Shown here one piece after another: positions 1,815-54,006 of a stretch of DNA of 54,006 nucleotides. A program made the translations under genes and the position numbers. The stretch is from a virus (lineage: Duplodnaviria; Heunggongvirae; Uroviricota; Caudoviricetes). The DNA is taken from the IMG/VR virus record IMGVR_UViG_2718218355_000004, one strand, 5' to 3'. Position 1 is the first letter of the stretch, and every line of letters starts with the position of its first letter. The notes under the pieces were generated by a model. It was not told where the DNA came from. It was given only the letters and a program-made list of their open reading frames with translations, and did not search any database.

Positions 1815-4800
1815 TATGCAAGCCTCACAATATAGTTAAATGCGATGTTTTTGACGGTGTTTTCCGCGTTACCAGCAGCGTTAACGGTGATGGTGTGTCC
1901 ATGTGAGCCAATCGCAACGGAGTGCGTATGAGCACCAATACCGACAGTATGTGCATGTGCGCCTGCGCTTGCAGCAGTGCCGGACAGCGAGTGGGTATGA
2001 GCACCATCTGATGATGTCTTCCCTGCATTACGAGTCTGGCCACTACCGCTTGTTGTGCTCATAATCCCCGCGCTTAGATTTGAAATCGCGGTATAACCAT
2101 TAGGGAAAATGCTCGTGTTCGTGCCACCAAATGCACCGGAACTCTTGTGTTGGTGCGCACCGGCACTATTTGCAGTCCCGCTAATACTATGGGTATGCGC
2201 CCCGGTGTTATTCGTGGATTTGGTTCCGTAATCAAACGACGATGTGTTTTTCGTCCCCAAATCCGTACTGGATGCGCTGGCGCTGTGGGTGTGCGATTTA
2301 ATGCCGTCCTGTTCCTGAGATAATACGGCTCGACCACTGGCAGGTTTGCCCTTAATCGTCCAGCCACGCATATCAGGGATCACGCCTGACGGATAAGCGG
2401 CTGCAAGTTTTGGGTAGGCAGATTTGTCAAAAGTCTGCCCCTGCATCAGGGCATAACCAGACGGAACGGTATCTGATGGCCACGGGATTGGTGCACCGAC
2501 TGGATAAAACTCTGCAGGAGGATGAGCCGAGGTGTAAAGCTGCGCCCAACCACTTTCAAAACCATAACCGTCTCTTGAAGAACGGTAGAACAGACCACCA
2601 TTTCTGTAATGCGCCTTCATCTGCAAGGTCCGGCAACTTCCGACTCCGGTATAGAAGTTAACCAGAATATAGCTGTCGCCAGAGCGGGTGACATTGTAAG
2701 CGCCTGATTCGGCATTCCATGGAACGCCCCCATCCGCATCGGCATACGCATCCGTTGCTCTTCTGGCAAAAGCAGCCACATGCGCGGCGGTTAAAGTGAT
2801 ATCAGTAGAACCATCAAATGGAACACCGGATATTTTTCTTGCAGTCTGAAGTTTTGTAGCAGTTGCAGCATTACCAGTGGTGTTCTGATTACCCGTAGTG
2901 TTTACACCTGGAAGGTTAATATTTGCAGAACCGTCGAAAACAACTCCACCGATAGATCTTGCCGTCTGCAATTTCGTGGCTGTACTTGCATTACCATTCA
3001 ATGAACCAGTTAATCCACCTGTAACAGACAACGGACCTGAAACTGTTCCTCCGGTTGTTGGCAGTGCTCCAATATCTAACGGCGTCGGTTTCTGATGTGT
3101 GCTATACATCGTATAAACAACACCATCGGTAACGCTGGAAGGCTTACTCGCTGAATATGTTGGCGATGTATAAATAGAAACTGTCGCATTTGCAGTACAA
3201 TCCCAATGGATATTTACACGAGTCGCATAATTGCCAATCTCAACGTAAATATCATATGTATCGCCGGATGTGTTGATCCAGGCGAAATTCGTTAATCCGA
3301 CGGCTGTACGCTTCCACAAAGCCCCGGTAATTCCTTTGGGGTTTCCATTGCCTGCTCGTAGAACCAGTTCTGAAATGCCTGCCTGATGTGGGGAACCGAC
3401 GTTGTAACCAGCGCCACCAATCAATGCGATGTAAACGATGGAACTCGCTTGTGGCATGGTAACCGTAGCCAGTTTGAACCACCCAGCCCCGCCAGAGAAA
3501 GACATCGTTACTGAATTTAAAGTACCAATATCTTTCGGCGTTAATGTTATATCCGCAGTCAGTGCTTTTCCGTTAACTTTTCGGTTAGATGGCACCCTGC
3601 TATTCGCATTGTCATTGGCTGCTTTAACTGCTTTTGGCGTTGCGGCCAGCGATTCACTGGTGCTATCAACAGCACTGCTAAGTTTCACAACACCTTTAGT
3701 TGTAAGGCTTGCGTCTTCCATCGCAACTGCACCGGCAATCTCTTCAGCACGATCAGCAGCAGCTTCCGCACGGGTCGCAGCGGATTCAGCAGCAGTTTTG
3801 CTCTGAGATGCTGCCGTCGCACTGCCTGCCGCCTCTGTTGCTTTCGTGGATGCCGTCGTGGCGCTGCCCTTCGCTGCTGACGCCTGTCTGGTCGCCTCAT
3901 CTTTTGAAGCAGACGCAGATGATGCCGATGACGCTGCCGAACTGGCGGACGATGCGGCTGCCGTTTTTGAGGATTCTGCACGGGTTTCCGACGCTTTCGC
4001 ATTCGTTTCGGATGTCTTCGCTGCGGAAGCAGACCTCGCTGCTGAGCTGGCCTGTACAGCGGCTTCGCCAGCCTTCGTTGTGGCTGTTGAAGCGGACGAT
4101 GCAGCACTTTCTGCCGATTTTCCGGCGGCGGTGGCACTGGCTGAGGCCTGCCCGGCACTTGTTGACGCGGCACTGGCAGACGACGCAGCCGCTGTTTTTG
4201 AGCCTGCCGCAGCTGAGGCACTCTGTCCCGCTGCCGTTTCAGAAGCCTTGGCGTTCGTCTCGGACGTTTTTGCCGCCTTCGCAGAATTTGCTGTCGCCGT
4301 TGCCGAGGAAGCTGCGCTGCTGGCGCTCGAGGCTGCGCTCGTTTCTGATGATTTTGCCGCCTCTTTTGAAGCCGACGCATCCCGGGCTGAGGTGGCAGCT
4401 TCTGACGCTTTCGTGGTCGCGGTGGATGCTGAAGTGGCTGCTGATTGTTGTGACGCTGCCGCATTCGTTTCTGACGTTTTTGCCGCAGCGGCACTGGTGG
4501 CCGCCGCGCTTTTTGAGGACTCTGCAGCGGCAGCACTTTTTGATGCTTCAGTGGCCTTTGCTGATGCCGTTCCTGCGCTGGAAGACGCTGACTGAGCCGA
4601 CGAAGCGGCCTGTCCGGCTGACGTGCTGGCTGCGCGTGCTGAGCCTGCAGCATCAGTCGCATGGGTTGCCGCCTCACGGGCAGATGTGCCGGCATCGCCG
4701 GCTGACTTCTTCGCGGCTGCCGTGTTCTGTGCCACTGCGGACGCGTTACGCGCCACCTCTTCCACCATCAGTTCAAAACGGCGCAGTGCCTCTGGCCGGA

Positions 4801-11738: not shown

Positions 11739-14700
11739 TTAATATTCCCCCATCACGTCGCATATTTAACAGATTGCCCTGCACCCGCTGATCAACCATC
11801 CCCATAAGTGCTTTTATTGCCTGAGGGCCAATCTCTCCATTCTGGCCGTCATTTTGAATAGTGATTTGGTATACAGGGGCATAGGTAATATCTCCGCCTC
11901 CATTACCACTTTTACTATTAATAGCTCTGACACCAAGAGAACCATCGGAAGTTCGTGTTAATGGCATAATGGCTTCCGGTCCAGCCTCACCAAAAACACC
12001 AGCCCCTTTTGCAAAAGCAAAAAATTGCGGGGAATCATAAATACCGTTCGAATACGTGCTCAATGACGGAGACTCATAAACACCGCCCTTTGCATTCGGA
12101 ATAAATTTACGAATAGCACTCCCGATAGTTCCTAAAATCCCCCCAGAAGAACTGTTACTAATGCTGTCGAAAATCCCAGTAATTGAAGCCTTTAATGCCA
12201 TTCGACTAAGATCCGAAATCACGGAAGTAGCGAAAGAACGAAAATTTGCCTTGCCTGTCGTGACAAAATCACCCAGCGCATCGGTCATCCCATCAAACAT
12301 CTGAGTCGTGGTTGATTTTATCTGCTCACTGATATCCTTAGTGTCATCCAGCCAGTTATTGAATCCCTGGGAGGCACCACTAACCCAGTCTCCTGCCTGA
12401 ATATCGAGCTGCTCGTTTTTCTGTCTGACAATTTCTTTTTCCCGTTCCAGAGCATCATTCAGAGCCTGCATTTTCTCTTGAAAAACATGATCTGACATTC
12501 CACGGGATTTATCTGCATAGTCACGTTCAAGTTGCAGACGCTGATTGTTATATCCATGTTCAATCCGCAGTAATTCCTGCTGGCGTTGCTGATTTTTATC
12601 GCCAACCCCATAACCAGCAATCTGAATATCATACCCCTGCTGACGATTATCAATCGAAGCCTGCAATGAATCACGCCATGCTGTTATTTCGGCGGATTCC
12701 TTGATTAGCCTGTTATTCTTTTCAATCGCAACATTTTTCTCCATCAACGCGGTTATTTCTTCCCGGTGTAAGAGAAGCGATTTCTGATCCTGGGTTAATT
12801 TCGATGATGGTCGTGACTCTAGGTCGGCAATCCGCTGACGCCACTTAACCAGTTCCTGTTCAGAGGAACTTAATTTAACGGTCAACTCAGCTTGTGAACT
12901 TAGTAACGCATTCTGTTGATTCAGATGATCAATCATTCGTTGGGCTGCATCATCAGAATAACCTTTCGCCTTTGGTTGCTTTGGATCTTTATAACGCTCA
13001 TTTATTTGAGCGATAAGATTATTATATTCTTCCTTTGAATACTGATTCTTTAGCTTTTCCAGTTTTGCAAGTTCACTAGCTCTCTGCTGCTCCCGGGTCT
13101 GATATTGTTTTGAAAAGGCATCTGCTCTCTGTCTGAGTTCAATTCCTTCCTGTTGTCGCTTGTTGTAATCGTTTATTGATGAATTTAGTACGTCCTGAGC
13201 AATTTTTTCTGCTTGAAGTACGCCCAATTGCTGCTTTAATCGTGCCAGCCTTTTATTTTGAGCTCCGCCATCTCCAATGCCACCTAACCCGAAAACTCCG
13301 GGTCGGGTATTTTTTTCTATTTCATCAATTTGACGGAGAACATCTGAGATTTTTTGATCAAGGGAGGCCTCACGGCCAATATCCAGCATGGAATCCCATG
13401 CCCATTTTGCGGAGTCTGCGACAGCTTTCCATGCAGTCTCAAGATAACCAAGATTTTCTTTAATCTGGTTGGTGCGCTGGATCATTGAGGATGAGTATTC
13501 TTCTGTCGCAATGCGGGCGGCCTCCTGCTGGTTCCCTTCATCCTGTAGCGCCTTAATCTGGTTATAAGTCGCAAGTGTCAGAAAATGGTACTGATCATTA
13601 AGTTTTGATATGGCACTGACAGGATCCTTTGCAATTTCATTGAAGTCATTAACCAGTTGTTCGGTTGATATTCCTGTTACTTCGCTCGTTTTTACTATCG
13701 CTGTCGTCACTTGCTCCAGCGAACTGCTCGCTACCTTTCCCGAACGCACAAGCTGATTTAATACTGCCGCCGCAGCACCAGTTGTCGAATCAGCCGCATT
13801 CCCGGCACGTTGAGCTATATCGCCCAATTGCCCGCTGGTTGTCCCCAACTGATTTCCGGTAAGAATAAGAGATTTATTAAATTCGTCCTGCTCCTGAGAG
13901 CCTTTATAGTAAGCCAGTCCTAAGACCCCAACGGCTGCTGCGGCCAGGGTAAAAGGATTAATTAATCCCAGCACATAAGAACCTACACCTTTGATCGCCG
14001 GGCCAATCCCACCGAACATATCTTTTAGCTGGCCGCCCTGCTGCATTAACACCATAAATGGCGACTGACCAGTGGACAACCCAACAACAATATCCGTCAT
14101 TTGTGCAGGCAACATGCGCATAGCAAAAGCCGTTTGTTTTGCCGACATTCCGGTTTTGCTTAATTGTGATTGAGTAACCTCAAGCTCACTCCGCATAGCA
14201 CGAAGTTTTCCAGAAAGCTCCTCATACATTTCAGGAGAAAGCATCCCCTTAGCTTTTGCTTCATTGAGCTGTTTCTGTTGTTCTACCAGACGATTAAAAG
14301 CAGTTCCGACAGGATCAAGTTGAGCAATCAGACGTTGCAAAGCAACAACCTGTTCATCATGCGCTTTTGCTGCTTCTCGCTCTGCCTGAGCCTCTCCGGT
14401 AAGCTCTCGCCGTGTTTCCTGTATTTTTCGGCTATAATTCTCAAACTGAGAACCATTTATTTTCCCGGATGCAAACGCAGCATTAAGTTCATCATGCTGT
14501 TGTTCAAGATTTCTTAGCGCCGCAGCCAGAGGGTCGATCTTGTCCAGCATTCTTTGAAAGGCCTGAGCCTGCGCTTCCTGCTGGGCGGCAGCAAGTTTTC
14601 CGGCCTTCTCGGCTTCTCTCTGCGCTTGCGCAACCCCGCTCAATTCCTCTGTGGTTTCATTAAGTTTACGGACAAGAAATTCATATTCTTCTTTATCAAT

Positions 14701-45084: not shown

Positions 45085-45510
45085 TCAATGCACAGCCACA
45101 ATATTTCCTGCAGGGCCACCACGATTCATCTGGTTGAAACCAGCGATCGCCACTGCGACAAAATCATCAGCGTCTCTCACCAGTCGTTCCCGCGTCTCCA
45201 CTAGTTCCCGAAAATAGGCTGAGCTATGGCTGCGCATTCGGGCCACCAGCAGAGGTGGCATTGCTTTTTCGATAGCTGGTAACAACGCCTGAATTTTTTC
45301 AACTGCATCAGGGGTGTCTTTCTCTACCCAGCGGAAAATTTTCTGGGTATTGCGAGCCAGGGCTTCCGGATGGCTGTCGTCATACAGTTCTGGGAACGTC
45401 ATACCCAGTTCAAAATAAGCCCTGGTTATTTCAGCTGCCGGAACTTTTTCACCGTCCGGATGCGCCCAGGCATTCATCGCCATGCGGATGTGTTCATGCT
45501 TGATTTTCAT
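45085..45510 (-). CDS. ydaT: YdaT-like protein (cro-operon, toxic when derepressed)
   Basis: 141 aa; ATG overlapping the 3' end of ydaS; matches my recollection of Rac YdaT. Confidence 0.7.
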   Translation of the reverse strand: MKIKHEHIRMAMNAWAHPDGEKVPAAEITRAYFELGMTFPELYDDSHPEALARNTQKIFRWVEKDTPDAVEKIQALLPAIEKAMPPLLVARMRSHSSAYFRELVETRERLVRDADDFVAVAIAGFNQMNRGGPAGNIVAVH

Positions 45511-45775
45511 GAATCAAGCTCCTAGAAAGTGGTTGTGTTAACATTTTGGTATCTTCCAGCTCGGGCCAAATATTCATCCAATCAAAAGGCCTTAGTTGCT
45601 GACGTGTAACTTCACCATTACTGGCTCGCTCAATAAGGACACATAACGATGCCCCTAACACTTGACCTTTACTCAATGCCTTTCTTAGATAACCGATGCT
45701 GGTACCACACTCGCATGCAAACATACGCTGTTCATCTGACGAAAGAGAATTGAGAAATATTCTTAATTCTTCCAT
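45494..45775 (-). CDS. ydaS: Cro-like HTH protein YdaS
   Basis: 93 aa with HTH (ECGTSIGYLRKALSKGQ); divergent from the repressor gene across an operator region. Confidence 0.65.
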   Translation of the reverse strand: MEELRIFLNSLSSDEQRMFACECGTSIGYLRKALSKGQVLGASLCVLIERASNGEVTRQQLRPFDWMNIWPELEDTKMLTQPLSRSLIHENQA

Positions 45776-45804: not shown

Positions 45805-45880
45805 TACCCATAGGTAAACAAAAGTCAATACCCACAGGTTGTTTACCTTGCAGTAATCGCATCTATTATTTACCTATGGA
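45805..45880. promoter_or_regulatory. OR-like divergent promoter/operator region
   Basis: Three copies of a 12-bp operator-like motif: TACCCATAGGTA (45805-45816), TACCCACAGGTT (45829-45840), TACCTATGGA (45871-45880, overlapping the repressor start codon), plus inverted repeat TAGGTAAACA / TGTTTACCT. Confidence 0.5.
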
Positions 45881-46295
45881 CAAATATGAATTTAGACGAC
45901 AGCAACTCATCAAAATTCGTGATGAGAAATGCGATGGTAAAGCGGTTAACGTGGCCAGAAAGATCGGGCGCGAGCCTTCTTATGTATCAAGAATGTTGTA
46001 CCCAGAGGGGAAAAAGGGAAAAAAACGGATCGCTGATGATATGGTGGAGATTATCGAAGAGTCCTTTGGGTTACCCCGGGGATGGATGGATGGTATCGTT
46101 TCATCATCAACGAACACAGCCTCCAGTTATGAAACAAGGGTTCTAACGCCACGACAACGTATTTTTTTAGATCTCTTAGACGAACTGCCAGAAAGTGAAG
46201 CGGATAACTTATTAAAAACTCTTGAAGAGAAAAAACAGTATTACAATATGATCTACGAAGAAATCCGTAAAAAGAAAGCACAAAACGCATCATAG
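45876..46295 (+). CDS. racR: Prophage repressor (CI-like HTH), RacR-like
   Basis: 139 aa with HTH (VNVARKIGREPSYVSRML); divergent from ydaS/ydaT; operators on both sides. Confidence 0.55.
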   Translation: MDKYEFRRQQLIKIRDEKCDGKAVNVARKIGREPSYVSRMLYPEGKKGKKRIADDMVEIIEESFGLPRGWMDGIVSSSTNTASSYETRVLTPRQRIFLDLLDELPESEADNLLKTLEEKKQYYNMIYEEIRKKKAQNAS

Positions 46296-46327
46296 CTCAC
46301 CAAACAACTAGTCACCAGTTAAGACAC

Positions 46328-46365
46328 CGCAAAAAGTTACCCATGGGTATTTACTTTTTAAATAC
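46328..46365. promoter_or_regulatory. OL-like operator pair downstream of the repressor gene
   Basis: Perfect 12-bp palindrome TACCCATGGGTA (46328-46339) and TACCTATGGGTA (46354-46365), the latter the reverse complement of the OR site at 45805. Confidence 0.5.
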
Positions 46366-46549
46366 CTATGGGTATCCTTCTTTTCATACCAACCCACCCC
46401 GCCCCACAGAATGCAGGGCAATACTTCGAGTTACCAGGCAGTGGTCAGGGGTTAAGTAGCCAGCCCGAGGCGTAAGAACATGACGGCGGGATTCAAATTT
46501 TGCAGTGCAGCAGTTAGTTCCGCCACCCGGCGTTAAGGGGAGAGATAAG

Positions 46550-46684
46550 ATGGTGCATTACGAAGTAGTTCAGTATTTGATGGATTGTTGCGGTATCACT
46601 TACAACCAGGCTGTGCAGGCTTTACGCAGCAACGACTGGGATCTCTGGCAGGCAGAAGTCGCTATACGTAGCAACAAGATGTGA
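46550..46684 (+). CDS. Small prophage protein (44 aa)
   Basis: ATG with AAGGGGAGAG SD; MVHYEVVQYLMDCCGITYNQAVQALRSNDWDLWQAEVAIRSNKM; not in supplied track; resembles small Rac ORFs (ydaF/ydaG region). Confidence 0.4.
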   Translation: MVHYEVVQYLMDCCGITYNQAVQALRSNDWDLWQAEVAIRSNKM

Positions 46685-46694
46685 GATTCGCAAA

Positions 46695-46850
46695 ATGCAA
46701 AAAATCGACCTCGGCAACAACGAATCCCTGGTGTGCGGCGTGTTCCCCAACCAGGATGGAACGTTCACTGCCATGACGTATACCAAAAGCAAAACATTTA
46801 AAACCGAAACTGGTGCGCGCCGATGGTTGGAGAAGCACACAGTAAGCTAA
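46695..46850 (+). CDS. Small prophage protein (51 aa)
   Basis: ATG ORF MQKIDLGNNESLVCGVFPNQDGTFTAMTYTKSKTFKTETGARRWLEKHTVS immediately after the 44-aa ORF; not in supplied track. Confidence 0.4.
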   Translation: MQKIDLGNNESLVCGVFPNQDGTFTAMTYTKSKTFKTETGARRWLEKHTVS

Positions 46851-47335
46851 CGATTAAAACGTCTACTCCTGCTGTTCCAGAATAACTTCATAAAATGGGA
46901 GTATTTTTCGGTGACGAGATAATAAGAACAGTTTGCGCTATCACTCTGATGTTGAATGATGCCCTTCCGTTCTAATTTTTTCATAACCGGGTTACGGCAA
47001 GGAGAAGTGATAATAAGATTTCCTGTTTTAAGGAAATCTTTAAATACAGCGATTTCTTTCTCAGATAAACGAAGCAATACTCGTTGCTCTGGTAGTAATG
47101 AATAATGCTTTTGAATATGTGCTCGCAATCTTGAGAAGGAAATGGCGACCACGAAAGAAAAGGCAAAAACGATAATCTGAAAGAGCCAAGGTATTTCAGT
47201 ATAAGCATTGAATGCGACAGTAAACTCTTTCGGTATCAGCCAGAGAGTGAGACCAAAAATGATAATCGTATACATAAGTCTTTCGAGTGGCTCGTTAGCA
47301 AAAAGTTTCAACAATGGAGTAAATACATCCAACAT
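46847..47335 (-). CDS. sieB: Superinfection exclusion protein B
   Basis: Start at MLDVFTPLLK; 162 aa with two TM helices. Confidence 0.85.
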   Translation of the reverse strand: MLDVFTPLLKLFANEPLERLMYTIIIFGLTLWLIPKEFTVAFNAYTEIPWLFQIIVFAFSFVVAISFSRLRAHIQKHYSLLPEQRVLLRLSEKEIAVFKDFLKTGNLIITSPCRNPVMKKLERKGIIQHQSDSANCSYYLVTEKYSHFMKLFWNSRSRRFNR

Positions 47336-47776
47336 ATCAATAACTCTCAACTGTAAGGGTATTGAAATGTTAACACAAGCTCTCGCTGTAGGGGTATAGC
47401 CGAGACCACCGAAGCCCGGAGGTGGTGAAATAAAACCGGGCACAACACGAAGGCGCATTTCCGATATCCATAAAGAGTCGGTCTTGTCTGTTAAATTTAA
47501 ATGGTGGGAGTGCGCCTCCGGTTGTAAATAACGACATTGCTGTGTGTAGTCCTGGCGGCATCAGTTTTTTTCTTGAAGTTCGGCTGATGTCCGCCCTTTT
47601 TAAAGTGAATTTTGTGATGCGGTGAATGCGGCTAAGCGCACGTGGCACAGTTAAAAGTCATGTTAGTCCTTATTGGTTTGAGTGGGAAAGCCGACTGTAA
47701 TTGTTAACTGGTTGCAGTCACCTGGAGGCACCAGACACCGCATCAACAAAGTTCATTTGTAAAAATGGAGATAATT

Positions 47777-47998
47777 ATGATTGCACATCACTTCGGAACT
47801 GATGAAATACCACGTCAGTGTGTGACTCCTGGCGATTATGTTCTTCATGAAGGCCGGACATATATTGCCTCGGCAAACAATATTAAAAAGCGAAAACTAT
47901 ATATTCGTAACCTGACCACAAAAACATTCATTACTGACCGCATGATTAAAGTCTTCCTCGGTCGTGATGGTTTACCTGTAAAGGCGGAGTCATGGTGA
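47777..47998 (+). CDS. kilR: Killing protein KilR (FtsZ inhibitor)
   Basis: 73 aa from ATG at [10 protein letters not shown]; first gene of the early-left operon. Confidence 0.8.
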
Positions 47999-48168
47999 TG
48001 ACTAAGAAAATAAAATGTGCTTACCACCTTTGCAAAAAAGACGTTGAAGAAAGCAAAGCTATTGAAAGAATGCTTCACTTCATGCACGGGATTTTATCAA
48101 AAGACGAACCGAGAAAATATTGCAGTGAAGCTTGTGCCGAAAAAGACCAGATGGCACATGAACTTTAA
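47998..48168 (+). CDS. ydaE: Small zinc-ribbon protein YdaE (56 aa)
   Basis: ATG overlapping the kilR stop; [14 protein letters not shown]...CSEACAEKDQMAHEL with two Cys pairs; not in supplied track. Confidence 0.6.
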   Translation: MTKKIKCAYHLCKKDVEESKAIERMLHFMHGILSKDEPRKYCSEACAEKDQMAHEL

Positions 48169-48242
48169 TTAATTGACTATTCGAAACTGAATTTATGCCA
48201 GAAATGGCAGGTATTCGCTCAACCTTAATTAAGGAGAAAAAC

Positions 48243-48518
48243 ATGATTACCAATTATGAAGCCACTGTTGTAACTACCGATGACATTGTTCACGAGGTGA
48301 ATCTGGAAGGAAAGCGCATTGGCTACGTAATTAAAACAGAAAATAAAGAAACCCCATTCACTGTGGTTGATATCGATGGTCCATCAGGCAACGTAAAAAC
48401 ACTTGATGAAGGTGTCAAAAAAATGTGCCTGGTGCATATCGGAAAGAATCTGCCCGCAGAAAAAAAAGCCGAATTTCTGGCAACTCTAATTGCAATGAAA
48501 TTAAAAGGTGAAATCTGA
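48243..48518 (+). CDS. racC: RacC protein
   Basis: 91 aa from ATG at MITNYEATVV; immediately upstream of recE. Confidence 0.7.
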   Translation: MITNYEATVVTTDDIVHEVNLEGKRIGYVIKTENKETPFTVVDIDGPSGNVKTLDEGVKKMCLVHIGKNLPAEKKAEFLATLIAMKLKGEI

Positions 48519-48619
48519 AAGAAATAGCCTGCGTATGGCGCAGGCTATGAACAGTGTGTATCCGGCAAGATCATTCACTGAACAAAACGAATTTTAATCT
48601 GAGTTGAGGTTAAAAAACA

Positions 48620-51220
48620 ATGAGCACAAAACCACTCTTCCTGTTACGGAAAGCGAAAAAATCATCCGGTGAACCTGACGTCGTCCTGTGGGCAAGCAAC
48701 GATTTTGAATCGACCTGTGCCACTCTGGACTACCTGATCGTTAAGTCAGGTAAAAAACTGAGCAGCTATTTTAAAGCTGTTGCCACGAATTTTCCTGTCG
48801 TTAATGACCTGCCCGCTGAAGGTGAGATCGATTTTACCTGGAGTGAACGCTATCAACTCAGCAAAGACTCCATGACATGGGAACTAAAACCGGGAGCAGC
48901 ACCAGACAACGCTCACTATCAAGGCAATACCAACGTCAACGGCGAAGACATGACTGAGATTGAGGAGAATATGCTACTCCCAATTTCTGGCCAGGAACTG
49001 CCCATTCGTTGGCTTGCTCAACACGGCAGCGAAAAACCGGTAACGCACGTTTCACGCGACGGACTCCAGGCATTACACATTGCTCGGGCTGAAGAACTAC
49101 CGGCTGTTACTGCCCTGGCTGTTTCCCACAAAACCAGCCTGCTCGACCCGCTGGAAATTCGCGAACTCCACAAACTGGTTCGTGACACTGACAAAGTTTT
49201 CCCTAATCCTGGTAATTCAAACCTGGGACTGATAACTGCTTTTTTCGAAGCATACCTGAACGCTGACTACACCGATCGAGGACTGCTGACAAAAGAGTGG
49301 ATGAAGGGTAATCGTGTTTCACACATCACTCGCACGGCTTCCGGTGCTAATGCTGGCGGCGGAAACCTCACCGATCGCGGCGAAGGTTTCGTACACGATC
49401 TGACGTCACTGGCGCGCGACGTAGCCACTGGCGTACTGGCCCGTTCAATGGATCTGGACATCTATAACCTTCATCCGGCACACGCTAAACGCATTGAGGA
49501 AATTATCGCTGAAAATAAACCGCCCTTTTCTGTTTTCCGCGACAAATTCATCACCATGCCTGGCGGGCTGGATTATTCCCGCGCCATCGTGGTTGCGTCC
49601 GTAAAAGAAGCACCAATTGGGATCGAGGTCATCCCCGCGCACGTCACTGAATATCTGAACAAAGTACTGACTGAAACCGATCATGCCAACCCTGATCCGG
49701 AAATCGTGGATATTGCCTGCGGTCGCTCCTCTGCCCCGATGCCGCAGCGAGTAACAGAAGAAGGAAAACAGGATGATGAAGAAAAACCGCAACCATCTGG
49801 AACAACGGCAGTTGAACAGGGAGAGGCTGAAACAATGGAACCGGACGCAACTGAACATCATCAGGACACGCAGCCGCTGGATGCTCAGTCACAGGTAAAT
49901 TCTGTTGATGCGAAATATCAGGAACTGCGGGCAGAACTCCATGAAGCCCGGAAAAACATTCCATCAAAAAATCCTGTCGATGACGATAAATTGCTTGCTG
50001 CATCACGTGGTGAATTTGTTGACGGAATTAGCGACCCGAACGATCCGAAATGGGTAAAGGGGATCCAGACTCGCGATTGTGTGTACCAGAACCAGCCAGA
50101 AACGGAAAAAACCAGCCCAGATATGAATCAACCTGAGCCAGTAGTGCAACAGGAACCGGAAATAGCCTGCAATGCCTGCGGCCAGACTGGCGGGGATAAC
50201 TGCCCTGACTGTGGTGCGGTGATGGGCGACGCAACATACCAGGAAACATTCGATGAAGAGAGTCAGGTTGAAGCTAAGGAAAATGATCCGGAGGAAATGG
50301 AAGGCGCTGAACATCCGCACAATGAGAATGCTGGCAGCGATCCGCATCGCGATTGCAGTGATGAAACTGGCGAAGTCGCAGATCCCGTAATCGTAGAAGA
50401 CATAGAGCCAGGTATTTATTACGGAATTTCGAATGAGAATTACCACGCGGGTCCCGGTATCAGTAAGTCTCAGCTCGATGACATTGCTGATACTCCGGCA
50501 CTATATTTGTGGCGTAAAAATGCCCCCGTGGACACCACAAAGACAAAAACGCTCGATTTAGGAACTGCTTTCCACTGCCGGGTACTTGAACCGGAAGAAT
50601 TCAGTAACCGCTTTATCGTAGCACCTGAATTTAACCGCCGTACAAACGCCGGAAAAGAAGAAGAGAACGCGTTTCTGATGGAATGCGCAAGCACAGGAAA
50701 AACGGTTATCACTGCGGAAGAAGGCCGGAAAATTGAACTCATGTATCAAAGCGTTATGGCTTTGCCGCTGGGGCAATGGCTTGTTGAAAGCGCCGGACAC
50801 GCTGAATCATCAATTTACTGGGAAGATCCTGAAACAGGAATTTTGTGTCGGTGCCGTCCGGACAAAATTATCCCTGAATTTCACTGGATCATGGACGTGA
50901 AAACTACGGCGGATATTCAACGATTCAAAACCGCTTATTACGACTACCGCTATCACGTTCAGGATGCATTCTACAGTGACGGTTATGAAGCACAGTTTGG
51001 AGTGCAGCCAACTTTCGTTTTTCTGGTTGCCAGCACAACTATTGAATGCGGACGTTATCCGGTTGAAATTTTCATGATGGGCGAAGAAGCAAAACTGGCA
51101 GGTCAACAGGAATATCACCGCAATCTGCGAACCCTGTCTGACTGCCTGAATACCGATGAATGGCCAGCTATTAAGACATTATCACTGCCCCGCTGGGCTA
51201 AGGAATATGCAAATGACTAA
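48620..51220 (+). CDS. recE: Exodeoxyribonuclease VIII (RecE)
   Basis: 866 aa; C-terminal PD-(D/E)xK nuclease domain; stop overlaps the recT start (ATGACTAA). Confidence 0.95.
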
Positions 51221-52022
51221 GCAACCACCAATCGCAAAAGCCGATCTGCAAAAAACTCAGGGAAACCGTGCACCAGCAGCAGTTAAAAATAGCGACGTGA
51301 TTAGTTTTATTAACCAGCCATCAATGAAAGAGCAACTGGCAGCAGCTCTTCCACGCCATATGACGGCTGAACGTATGATCCGTATCGCCACCACAGAAAT
51401 TCGTAAAGTTCCGGCGTTAGGAAACTGTGACACTATGAGTTTTGTCAGTGCGATCGTACAGTGTTCACAGCTCGGACTTGAGCCAGGTAGCGCCCTCGGT
51501 CATGCATATTTACTGCCTTTTGGTAATAAAAACGAAAAGAGCGGTAAAAAGAACGTTCAGCTAATCATTGGCTATCGCGGCATGATTGATCTGGCTCGCC
51601 GTTCTGGTCAAATCGCCAGCCTGTCAGCCCGTGTTGTCCGTGAAGGTGACGAGTTTAGCTTCGAATTTGGCCTTGATGAAAAGTTAATACACCGCCCGGG
51701 AGAAAACGAAGATGCCCCGGTTACCCACGTCTATGCTGTCGCAAGACTGAAAGACGGAGGTACTCAGTTTGAAGTTATGACGCGCAAACAGATTGAGCTG
51801 GTGCGCAGCCTGAGTAAAGCTGGTAATAACGGGCCGTGGGTAACTCACTGGGAAGAAATGGCAAAGAAAACGGCTATTCGTCGCCTGTTCAAATATCTGC
51901 CCGTATCAATTGAGATCCAGCGTGCAGTATCAATGGATGAAAAGGAACCACTGACAATCGATCCTGCAGATTCCTCTGTATTAACCGGGGAATACAGTGT
52001 AATCGATAATTCAGAGGAATAA
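51213..52022 (+). CDS. recT: Recombinase RecT (single-strand annealing protein)
   Basis: 269 aa from ATG at [14 protein letters not shown]. Confidence 0.95.
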
Positions 52023-52078
52023 TTCAGCCTGGCGGTGTAATGCACCGCCAACTTGAAATATTTTTTATGAGAAAAATT

Positions 52079-52273
52079 ATGAGATATGACAATGTTAAAC
52101 CATGTCCATTTTGTGGTTGTCCATCAGTAACGGTGAAAGCCATTTCAGGATATTACCGAGCGAAGTGTAACGGATGCGAATCCCGAACCGGTTATGGTGG
52201 AAGTGAAAAAGAAGCACTCGAAAGATGGAATAAACGAACCACTGGAAATAATAATGGAGGTGTTCATGTATAA
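52079..52273 (+). CDS. ralR: Restriction alleviation protein RalR/Lar
   Basis: 64 aa from ATG at MRYDNVKPCPFCGC, Cys-rich. Confidence 0.8.
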   Translation: MRYDNVKPCPFCGCPSVTVKAISGYYRAKCNGCESRTGYGGSEKEALERWNKRTTGNNNGGVHV

Positions 52274-52475
52274 AATTACCGCCACTATTGAAAAGGAAGG
52301 TGGCACTCCTACTAACTGGACAAGATATTCAAAATCTAAACTAACGAAATCAGAATGCGAAAAAATGCTCTCAGGTAAAAAAGAAGCAGGCGTTTCCAGA
52401 GAGCAGAAAGTAAAACTGATAAATTTTAATTGCGAGAAACTTCAGTCCTCGAGAATTGCATTGTATTCAAATTAA
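52266..52475 (+). CDS. ydaC: YdaC-like small protein
   Basis: 69 aa from ATG at MYKITATIEKEGG, overlapping the ralR stop. Confidence 0.6.
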   Translation: MYKITATIEKEGGTPTNWTRYSKSKLTKSECEKMLSGKKEAGVSREQKVKLINFNCEKLQSSRIALYSN

Positions 52476-52553
52476 AAATTCATAGCTGATTATTAATAAT
52501 CAACATCGGGCGTCAATTTCAGTCTAACATTGGCGCCTGCCAGAGGTGATGCG

Positions 52554-52769
52554 ATGGCACAAGTAATCTTTAATGAAGAGTGGATGGTTGAATACGGCCT
52601 GATGCTTCGCACTGGTCTGGGGGCCAGACAAATTGAAGCATACCGCCAGAACTGTTGGGTGGAGGGCTTCCACTTCAAACGAGTATCTCCTTTAGGTAAG
52701 CCAGACAGCAAACGAGGGATTATCTGGTACAACTATCCAAAGATAAATCAGTTTATCAAAGACTCATGA
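52554..52769 (+). CDS. xisR: Excisionase
   Basis: 71 aa from ATG at [15 protein letters not shown] with AGAGGTGA SD; ends 2 nt before the int start. Confidence 0.7.
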
Positions 52770-52770
52770 T

Positions 52771-54006
52771 ATGTCTAAATTACCAACAGGTGTCGAGATT
52801 AGAGGTAGATACATTCGCATCTGGTTCATGTTTCGAGGAAAACGATGTCGGGAAACATTAAAAGGCTGGGAGATTACAAACAGTAATATTAAAAAGGCCG
52901 GAAATTTAAGAGCGCTGATAGTTCATGAAATAAACTCCGGTGAATTTGAGTATTTAAGACGTTTTCCCCAGTCCAGCACTGGGGCAAAAATGGTGACAAC
53001 GAGAGTCATAAAAACGTTCGGAGAGCTTTGTGATATCTGGACAAAAATTAAAGAGACAGAGTTAACAACAAACACAATGAAGAAAACGAAATCACAATTA
53101 AAAACACTCAGAATAATAATTTGTGAAAGTACCCCGATATCACATATTCGTTATAGCGATATCTTAAACTACCGGAATGAACTGCTGCATGGAGAAACGC
53201 TTTACCTGGATAATCCAAGATCCAACAAAAAAGGAAGAACCGTGCGCACAGTTGATAACTATATCGCCCTGCTCTGTTCGCTGTTGCGTTTTGCGTATCA
53301 GTCGGGATTTATATCAACCAAACCATTTGAAGGAGTAAAAAAATTACAGCGAAACAGAATAAAGCCTGATCCGTTATCTAAAACAGAATTCAATGCATTA
53401 ATGGAAAGTGAAAAAGGACAGAGCCAGAACTTGTGGAAATTTGCCGTTTACTCAGGACTTCGTCACGGGGAACTGGCAGCTCTGGCGTGGGAGGATGTGG
53501 ATCTCGAAAAGGGAATAGTGAATGTCAGAAGAAACCTGACGATACTTGATATGTTCGGTCCCCCAAAAACAAATGCCGGGATCCGAACAGTAACACTACT
53601 GCAGCCTGCTCTTGAAGCACTGAAGGAGCAATACAAACTGACCGGGCATCATCGCAAAAGCGAAATCACCTTTTATCATCGGGAGTACGGCAGAACCGAA
53701 AAGCAAAAACTGCATTTTGTTTTCATGCCCAGGGTGTGTAACGGAAAACAAAAACCTTATTACTCGGTAAGCAGTTTGGGGGCAAGGTGGAATGCAGCAG
53801 TAAAACGTGCTGGTATTCGCCGCCGTAATCCGTACCATACGCGGCATACTTTTGCCTGCTGGCTGTTGACGGCAGGAGCGAACCCGGCATTTATAGCCAG
53901 CCAAATGGGGCATGAAACTGCGCAGATGGTGTATGAAATTTACGGTATGTGGATTGATGACATGAACGACGAACAGATAGCCATGTTGAATGCGCGGTTA
54001 TCGTAG
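52771..54006 (+). CDS. intR: Tyrosine integrase
   Basis: 411 aa; C-terminal catalytic region with HTRHT motif; stop codon is the last 3 nt of the window, so attP/attR lies beyond it. Confidence 0.9.
   Translation: MSKLPTGVEIRGRYIRIWFMFRGKRCRETLKGWEITNSNIKKAGNLRALIVHEINSGEFEYLRRFPQSSTGAKMVTTRVIKTFGELCDIWTKIKETELTTNTMKKTKSQLKTLRIIICESTPISHIRYSDILNYRNELLHGETLYLDNPRSNKKGRTVRTVDNYIALLCSLLRFAYQSGFISTKPFEGVKKLQRNRIKPDPLSKTEFNALMESEKGQSQNLWKFAVYSGLRHGELAALAWEDVDLEKGIVNVRRNLTILDMFGPPKTNAGIRTVTLLQPALEALKEQYKLTGHHRKSEITFYHREYGRTEKQKLHFVFMPRVCNGKQKPYYSVSSLGARWNAAVKRAGIRRRNPYHTRHTFACWLLTAGANPAFIASQMGHETAQMVYEIYGMWIDDMNDEQIAMLNARLS

Follow-up and report, generated by a model that had tools for sequence, protein, structure and literature searches.

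A family of short palindromes with the core TACC-N4-GGTA flanks a CI-like repressor gene in a 54,006-nucleotide Caudoviricetes sequence (IMG/VR record IMGVR_UViG_2718218355_000004; this whole stretch is called the window). Three of the five sites lie in the divergent intergenic region between the repressor gene and a cro-like gene, and two lie downstream of the repressor gene. We put the probability at roughly 0.85 that these palindromes are, as the sequences suggest, the operators of a lambda-style immunity switch, with right-operator (OR)-like and left-operator (OL)-like sets for the repressor. The sites, their conservation, their positions with respect to consensus promoters, and the domain make-up of the repressor were determined directly. 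A first-pass annotation of this DNA had proposed OR- and OL-like operator sets for a CI-like repressor, and comparative genomics and promoter geometry bear this out. The central genes and sites are listed below, the palindromes without a strand.

45494-45775, minus strand: cro-like gene, 93 amino acids, loosely of the YdaS family, with a divergent homologue in most related loci
45805-45816: O1 (OR1-like), TACCCATAGGTA, covering the spacer and the first -10 hexamer bases of the PR-like promoter
45829-45840: O2 (OR2-like), TACCCACAGGTT, adjoining the PR -35 hexamer, its centre ~41.5 base pairs (bp) upstream of the predicted PRM start
45844-45855: O3 (OR3-like), TACCTTGCAGTA, over the PRM -35 hexamer and spacer
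45871-45882: start-codon site of the first-pass annotation, TACCTATGGACA, over the ATG at 45876; doubtful, at best weak and specific to the Escherichia coli lineage
45876-46295, plus strand: repressor gene, 139 amino acids, with an XRE-type helix-turn-helix N-terminal domain and a DicA-like helical C-terminal domain, without an S24 peptidase domain
46338-46349: OL2-like operator, TACCCATGGGTA, a perfect palindrome adjoining the PL-like -35 hexamer
46363-46374: OL1-like operator, TACCTATGGGTA, over the PL-like -10 hexamer

The divergent spacer is 100 bp long and contains O1, O2, and O3. The centre-to-centre distances are 24 bp for O1-O2, 15 bp for O2-O3, and 25 bp for the downstream pair. The first-pass annotation had correctly noted that one site is a perfect palindrome (the one at 46338-46349), but it gave 26 bp for the downstream pair and closed the region at 46365, which cuts the last site short of its end at 46374. 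Four of its five 12-bp sites are solid. The fifth, at the start codon, agrees with the core at only 6 of 8 positions, and its conservation does not reach beyond E. coli. The conserved third intergenic site, O3 at 45844-45855, was missing from its list. The 12-mer was searched at up to two and up to three mismatches, and the case for the sites was then built on the core motif, its clustering, and comparison with related loci. With two or fewer mismatches, three 12-mers were found in the window against 1.18 expected, which is not significant, and with three the matches are background. The core TACC-N4-GGTA with at most one mismatch occurs 19 times in the window, and five of these cluster within 625 bp at the repressor gene, against an expectation of 0.16 (Poisson P ~9e-7). 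An unbiased repeat search recovered the same motif family and showed the PR-side and PL-side regions to be inverted copies of one another.

Conservation was evaluated in 24 loci totaling 143.9 kilobases (kb), consisting of 23 loci from GTDB species representatives, each encoding a relative of the repressor, plus phage mEp043. The relatives are 39-82% identical to the repressor over the best-matching segment and come from Yersinia, Arsenophonus, Edwardsiella, Brenneria, Klebsiella, Leclercia, Aeromonas, Paraburkholderia, Herbaspirillum, Alcaligenes, Xanthobacteraceae, Stenotrophomonas, and others, with Burkholderiales represented among them. Exact TACC-N4-GGTA matches number 67 in this set, compared to ~2 expected and a maximum of 9 in 200 shuffles. 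All 67 are in place: 34 are upstream of the repressor ATG, 28 form downstream pairs (25-26 bp), and 5 are downstream singles whose partner site is degenerate. Alignment of the 110 bp 5' of each repressor start codon places O1 (TTTACC-N4-GGTAA) at about -72 from the ATG, O2 (TCAATACC-YRYR-GGTY) at about -47, and O3 (TTTACC-N4-GGTAA) at about -32, with a -10-like hexamer 3' of O3 that ends 6-7 nucleotides ahead of the ATG. O1 is present in 17 of 17 three-site loci. The downstream pair is 25-26 bp apart in 14 loci, where the OL2-like site reads TTTACC-N4-GGTA followed by TTGAC-like bases and the GGTA of the OL1-like site runs into a TAnnnT hexamer. Within each half-site, the four outer bases never change at O1 or at either left-operator site, unlike the centres and flanks. 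A YRYR centre is found at O1 in 17/17 loci and at O2 in 15/17, and the centre of O3 is variable. The E. coli variants differ mostly in the central 4 bp, and two of them (L027 and L028) have a perfect O3 core, TACCTTGCGGTA. The Klebsiella loci L005, L007, and L009-L011 encode S24-type repressor relatives accompanied by TACC-N4-GGTA sites and lack a cro-like partner. In L010, the repressor gene is upstream of small membrane proteins and a lysozyme-like open reading frame (ORF), which may constitute a repressor-controlled lysis or tailocin-like cassette.

The promoters and related elements are as follows.

45828-45801, minus strand: PR-like promoter, TTGACT-16-TATTCT, from a consensus scan, with a predicted start at ~45794; reads the cro-like, ydaT-like, and replication genes
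45842-45869, plus strand: PRM-like promoter, TTTACC-16-TATTAT, from the consensus scan, with the A of the ATG at 45876 as predicted start
46350-46378, plus strand: PL-like promoter, TTTACT-17-TATCCT, read from the sequence by analogy with PR, with a predicted start at ~46385
46338-46384, plus strand: hairpin of 16 pairs with a T-rich tail, from a terminator scan (46338-46374 plus TCCTTCTTTT)
46385-46500, plus strand: conserved, unannotated stretch of ~115 bp, probably the early-left leader; begins at the predicted PL start, where homology with K-12 Rac and many prophages resumes

The consensus scan was independent of the sites, yet O1 fills the PR spacer and the start of its -10 hexamer, O2 abuts the PR -35 hexamer, and the PRM -35 hexamer falls within O3. 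The GTCAATACC junction at the PR-like promoter is conserved among the relatives. The PRM -10 hexamer ends 6 nucleotides ahead of the ATG and there is no Shine-Dalgarno sequence, so the repressor mRNA is predicted to be leaderless. Most enterobacterial relatives have a -10-like hexamer 6-7 nucleotides before the ATG, mostly without a Shine-Dalgarno sequence, and mEp043 has a PRM of the same type (TTTACC-16-TAGAAT). Lambda CI bound at OR2 activates PRM from a centre ~41.5 bp upstream of the start. The O2 centre is at this distance from the predicted PRM start, which makes positive autoregulation plausible, and the position of O3 over the PRM -35 hexamer points to negative autoregulation at high repressor levels.

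From this arrangement we infer repressor binding, the order in which the sites are occupied, activation from O2, and competition by Cro. Most likely, a repressor dimer would recognize palindromes of 12-14 bp with the pattern T-TACC-YRYR-GGTA-A. Occupancy of O1 and O2 would block PR and silence the cro-like, ydaT-like, and replication genes. The O2-bound repressor may activate PRM, and filling of O3 would shut PRM when repressor is abundant. Repressor at the two left sites would block PL and keep the Rac early-left operon off (ydaG-like and ydaF-like genes, then kilR, racC, and recET). Competition from the cro-like protein for these sites is probable.

Several points weigh against this switch. 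Binding of the sites by the repressor is deduced from sequence, and conservation by itself cannot separate the repressor, the cro-like protein, or both as the binder, except in the Klebsiella loci. The O3 half-site in the window is imperfect (AGTA), and the 15-bp distance puts O2 and O3 on opposite helix faces, so simultaneous or cooperative occupancy of the lambda kind is not to be assumed. The PL hexamers in the window are weak (8/12), fall under the scan threshold, and were not called; the relatives have stronger PL hexamers around the downstream pair. Finally, the downstream sites contain the terminator-like hairpin and may have a second role. The two left sites pair in RNA as a 16-bp hairpin because they are similar palindromes, and both the terminator scan and the RNA fold (-24.1 kcal/mol, z -4.05) support a hairpin with a U-rich tail. 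There is no other terminator-like element between the repressor stop codon (46295) and the downstream pair or PL, and mEp043 has a separate one. These features would suit a pair that acts solely as an intrinsic terminator for the repressor gene, with neither operator nor promoter function, but we regard that as very improbable. The same 12-mer recurs at OR, where a similar T-rich stretch follows the PR -10 hexamer. Other loci have unlike centres, which weaken the hairpin, and their sites lie at distances of 0.2-2.5 kb from the repressor gene. Conservation extends to the -35 and -10 hexamers around the pair, and K-12 Rac has a strong promoter and RacR-type sites in the same position. A pair that serves as both operator and terminator of the repressor transcript is a tentative proposal that we hold to be possible but rather doubtful. 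A promoter on the minus strand at the downstream pair was considered and rejected; the hexamers on that strand are poorer, and only the plus strand has the conserved GGTATTGAC junction. Many E. coli genomes, K-12 among them, and several phages share the 46385-46500 stretch with 90-97% conservation. An Rfam search with it gave no match, and its fold is no better than that of shuffled sequences (z -0.34). Its probable role is that of early-left operon leader.

The identity of the binder and of the third right-operator site was weighed on the same evidence. The sites could be bound only by the cro-like, YdaS-family protein, with the 139-residue protein acting elsewhere or not being a DNA-binding repressor at all. 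In most loci the sites are accompanied by a cro-like gene, and YdaS of CP-933P footprints the equivalent intergenic region (PMC8630535). There is little to recommend this idea, however, since the Klebsiella loci have kept the repressor and the sites in the absence of a cro-like gene, which indicates that the sites follow the repressor. The N-terminal domain of the repressor is also the most conserved part of the module, in keeping with the invariant half-sites, has a helix-turn-helix fold, and is fused to an S24 peptidase in most relatives, like a classical CI. The first-pass annotation had attributed autoregulation to the start-codon site, and this site could be the third right operator, autorepressing in the way of O3 of K-12 RacR, which overlaps the ATG (PMC9638921). 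The left half and centre of the start-codon site, TTTACCTATG, are perfect. Its left part shares 12/14 bases with the downstream -10-side site in the repeat search, which leaves room for a weak, lineage-specific site, and the sequence is conserved in four E. coli variants. The whole site, however, matches at 9/12 bases and at only 6/8 in the core, and ~0.4 chance matches of this quality are estimated per 100-bp spacer. Its right half is coding and is set by the Met-Asp-Lys codons, where the GAC of E. coli fits worse than the GAT of the relatives. In the upstream alignment the site is absent from all non-E. coli relatives, and 45844-45855 is conserved. A third operator at the start codon is thus unlikely, and the location of O3 over the PRM -35 hexamer keeps autoregulation plausible by another route. 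Chance or unrelated elements, such as restriction-site-like words, would fit the non-significant 12-mer count in the window, but clustering and positional conservation across bacterial classes speak against this explanation, and the 24-locus count effectively refutes it; its probability is negligible. A lambda-style switch with OR- and OL-like operator sets is the reading we prefer.

The repressor, annotated to date as a hypothetical protein, belongs to phrog_5736 ("transcriptional regulator", E 4e-70), which is the mEp043-type CI DNA-binding domain family and has no Pfam model. A Pfam search with the protein gave no match, so no Peptidase_S24 domain was detected. The N-terminal domain contains the motif PSYVSRMLYPEGK..KKRI, the family alignment has 25 invariant positions, and this domain is the most conserved part of the module, with 77-82% identity across genera. 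Most relatives that share the N-terminal 75 residues carry Peptidase_S24 (PF00717) and are 223-292 residues long. Residues 86-136 resemble the C terminus of DicA (NCBIfam NF007257, E 2.8e-5). A full-length match to the DicA family was not reached (23.9 bits against a cut-off of 101), and the alignment is confined to residues 86-136. In the AlphaFold model (predicted local distance difference test, pLDDT, 84.6), four N-terminal helices are followed by a disordered linker (77-86) and then a helical hairpin. Foldseek returned XRE-type helix-turn-helix proteins, with 5d50, the Rep repressor of a Salmonella temperate phage, as the top PDB match, and C-protein, HigA, and HipB domains aligned at 2.5-4 Å over ~70 residues. 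The Foldseek E-values are marginal (1e-3 and worse) and support a fold assignment only. A sequence search of solved structures gave weak, irrelevant matches to ADAR Z-alpha domains (E ~0.08), which were discarded. Residues 34-41 (PSYVSRML), the putative recognition helix, hardly vary, which fits the invariant half-sites. Covariation between this helix and the half-sites was considered in the most divergent loci, L022 and L024, which have VISRML helices and TACT/AGTA at some sites; it was not used as evidence because the pattern is mixed and involves two loci. The protein looks chimeric, with an mEp043-type DNA-binding domain, elsewhere fused to Peptidase_S24, joined to a DicA-like helical C terminus. 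With a DicA-like C terminus in place of an S24 domain, its induction probably does not proceed through RecA-stimulated self-cleavage.

The arrangement resembles the lambda switch in many respects. In both, the repressor and cro genes diverge, the spacer has three palindromes over PR and PRM, O1 and O2 are 24 bp apart, O2 has the same position relative to PRM, the repressor mRNA is leaderless (here by prediction), and a second operator set sits at a co-directional PL promoter 3' of the repressor gene. The two also differ. The lambda site is 17 bp compared to 12-14 bp (TACC-N4-GGTA) here, O2 and O3 are 23 bp apart in lambda and 15 bp apart here, and OL has three sites in lambda but two here, only ~0.5 kb from OR. 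The window repressor lacks the S24 self-cleavage domain, and the CII equivalent is YdaT-like. Phage 434 operators are also short palindromes (ACAA-N6-TTGT) with conserved outer bases, and their varying centre is not contacted but tunes affinity through DNA shape. By analogy, a 434-like centre logic is suggested by the centres here, which are strictly YRYR at O1, O2, and OL but variable at O3, although the sequence differs from that of 434 and the centre here is 4 bp.

The closest sequenced phage is mEp043 (PV340537 / NC_019706). Its annotated cI is 65% identical to the repressor at the N terminus (residues 1-86), its cro belongs to the same family, its sites are at -72, -47, and -32, and its left pair is 25 bp apart. 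Its CI differs in having 228 amino acids and a Peptidase_S24 domain. The left pair of mEp043 lies between a clear, separate terminator and the annotated gene for antitermination protein N and is overlapped by a TAGACA-17-TATATT promoter. Upstream of this pair, at ~3553-3582 of the mEp043 locus (L025), there is a wide inverted repeat, TTACCTG-N12-CAGGTAA, built on the same half-site word, which may be a third left-operator element with other spacing. The three-plus-two layout also occurs in Escherichia phage CharmingMan and Mannheimia phage vB_MhS_587AP2, and sites are present in Xanthomonas phage Rb1. The PR promoter annotated in the vB_MhS_587AP2 record overlaps O1 in the same place as the window PR.

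Like the window, PaaR2/YdaS/YdaT of CP-933P has a CI analogue that is non-cleavable, a Cro of the YdaS type, YdaT in the role of CII, a repressor gene that is leaderless, and OR plus OL sets (PMC8630535, PMC9986795). CP-933P differs in its 18-bp palindromes based on GTTTAGTAA (PMC8630535) and in a repressor operon that includes paaA2-parE2. The repeats in the window spacer were read as TACC-N4-GGTA rather than GTTTAGTAA, for which no dedicated scan was made. DicA, the Qin repressor, is alike over the C-terminal 50 residues, but the score is well under the family cut-off and the N-terminal DNA-binding domain of the window repressor is unrelated to the DicA model. In strain S21EC, the cassette occupies the dicA-dicC position upstream of Qin-type ydfABC-dicB, in a prophage whose integrase adjoins potC. 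The operator family, the protein accessions, and the mEp043 operators are not described in the searchable literature, which excludes most subscription journals and yielded only primers and unrelated papers. The site sequence and the repressor family appear to be undescribed; the lambda-like operator principle itself is textbook.

The prophage that carries the module is Rac. Positions 46500-54006 are 99.9% identical to K-12 Rac (recE, recT, racC, sieB, and intR), and strain TA8571 has an identical module between trkG and ttcA, within the Rac prophage. The description of a Rac-type immunity switch in the first-pass annotation therefore holds for the context, but not for the repressor, which has no detectable similarity to RacR (BLASTP E 1.7). 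K-12 Rac has the same flanks and geometry, with three spacer sites and two sites around a strong promoter 3' of racR, but its operators are (T/A)TAGGC-n3-GCCTA(T/A) (PMC9638921). RacR-type sites are found in the spacers of K-12 and of the racR-type strain L029 and not in the window. With no detectable repressor similarity and with other operators, the window cassette and K-12 Rac would be heteroimmune. The DNA past the repressor stop codon was compared with that past racR in K-12 and one other strain; the sequences are unrelated up to CATACC (46385) and near-identical thereafter. Just before this boundary, K-12 Rac has the RacR-type sites TTAGGCATAGCCTA and TTAGGCATTACCTA around a TTGACA-17-TATAGT promoter (11/12 consensus), in a geometry that matches the downstream pair of the window exactly. 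These elements are at 2333-2374 of the K-12 MG1655 locus (L030) and at ~1409-1458 in L029. The accessible part of the RacR paper (PMC9638921) places three sites in the racR-ydaS spacer only. Judging from their sequence, the sites and promoter 3' of racR look like the OL and PL of Rac. The sequence boundaries delimit an immunity cassette that runs from within ydaT to the PL start and brings its own operators at both ends, which is the expected form of a lambdoid immunity region. At least 80% of the queried 1.1-kb stretch (repressor, cro-like gene, and sites) is present in 821 of 5,426 complete E. coli genomes. The TA8571 locus (L026, 100% identical module) has an IS1 at 12416-13113, at the 5' end of the cro-like gene and beside the repressor/cro spacer, which from its position would disconnect PR from its genes.

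Behind the cro-like gene is the CII-equivalent gene.

45085-45510, minus strand: ydaT-like gene (CII-equivalent), matching Pfam YdaT_toxin and phrog_163

A replication-initiator gene and a DUF977 gene are also located behind the cro-like gene, and a ydaG-like ORF, a DUF1391 (ydaF-like) ORF, and sieB are 3' of the repressor gene. The published YdaT recognition site of CP-933P is TTGATT-N6-AATCAA (PMC9986795). Its sole exact match in the 54 kb, TTGATTTTCATGAATCAA at 45500-45517, covers the start codon of the ydaT-like gene, where the cro-like gene and ydaT meet. With respect to YdaT, the module is of the CP-933P type. In the Rac early-left region, a DicF-like RNA is found just past sieB at 47541-47596 on the plus strand (Rfam RF00039, 39.1 bits, under the gathering score of 48, E 2.5e-6), and an STnc100-like match follows it at 47598-47784 on the plus strand (29.3 bits, E 8e-4).

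The cassette is common and of textbook design, and the palindromes are almost certainly the binding sites of its repressor. The switch would control the Rac early-left genes (kilR and recET) together with the ydaS/ydaT-like genes. The homologous K-12 genes include those for the killing protein KilR and for YdaS/YdaT, and derepression of YdaS/YdaT on loss of RacR is lethal. With the operator consensus and the promoter map in hand, the switch can be tested directly, and immunity groups of Rac, Qin, and lambdoid prophages can be assigned from sequence. Natural repressors that have the same DNA-binding domain and are either self-cleaving or not form a pair that is useful for studying the exchange of induction signals between phages. 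A bolder combination, to which we give slightly less credence than to the dual role of the downstream pair, is that at least three classes of Proteobacteria have kept TACC-YRYR-GGTA and its DNA-binding domain unchanged but swapped the induction domain (S24 or DicA-like), and that the left operators of this E. coli Rac variant double as the terminator of the repressor transcript. If so, one stretch of 37 bases would serve as operator and promoter in DNA and as terminator in RNA, and phages and prophages of very different hosts would form one immunity group with different induction triggers.

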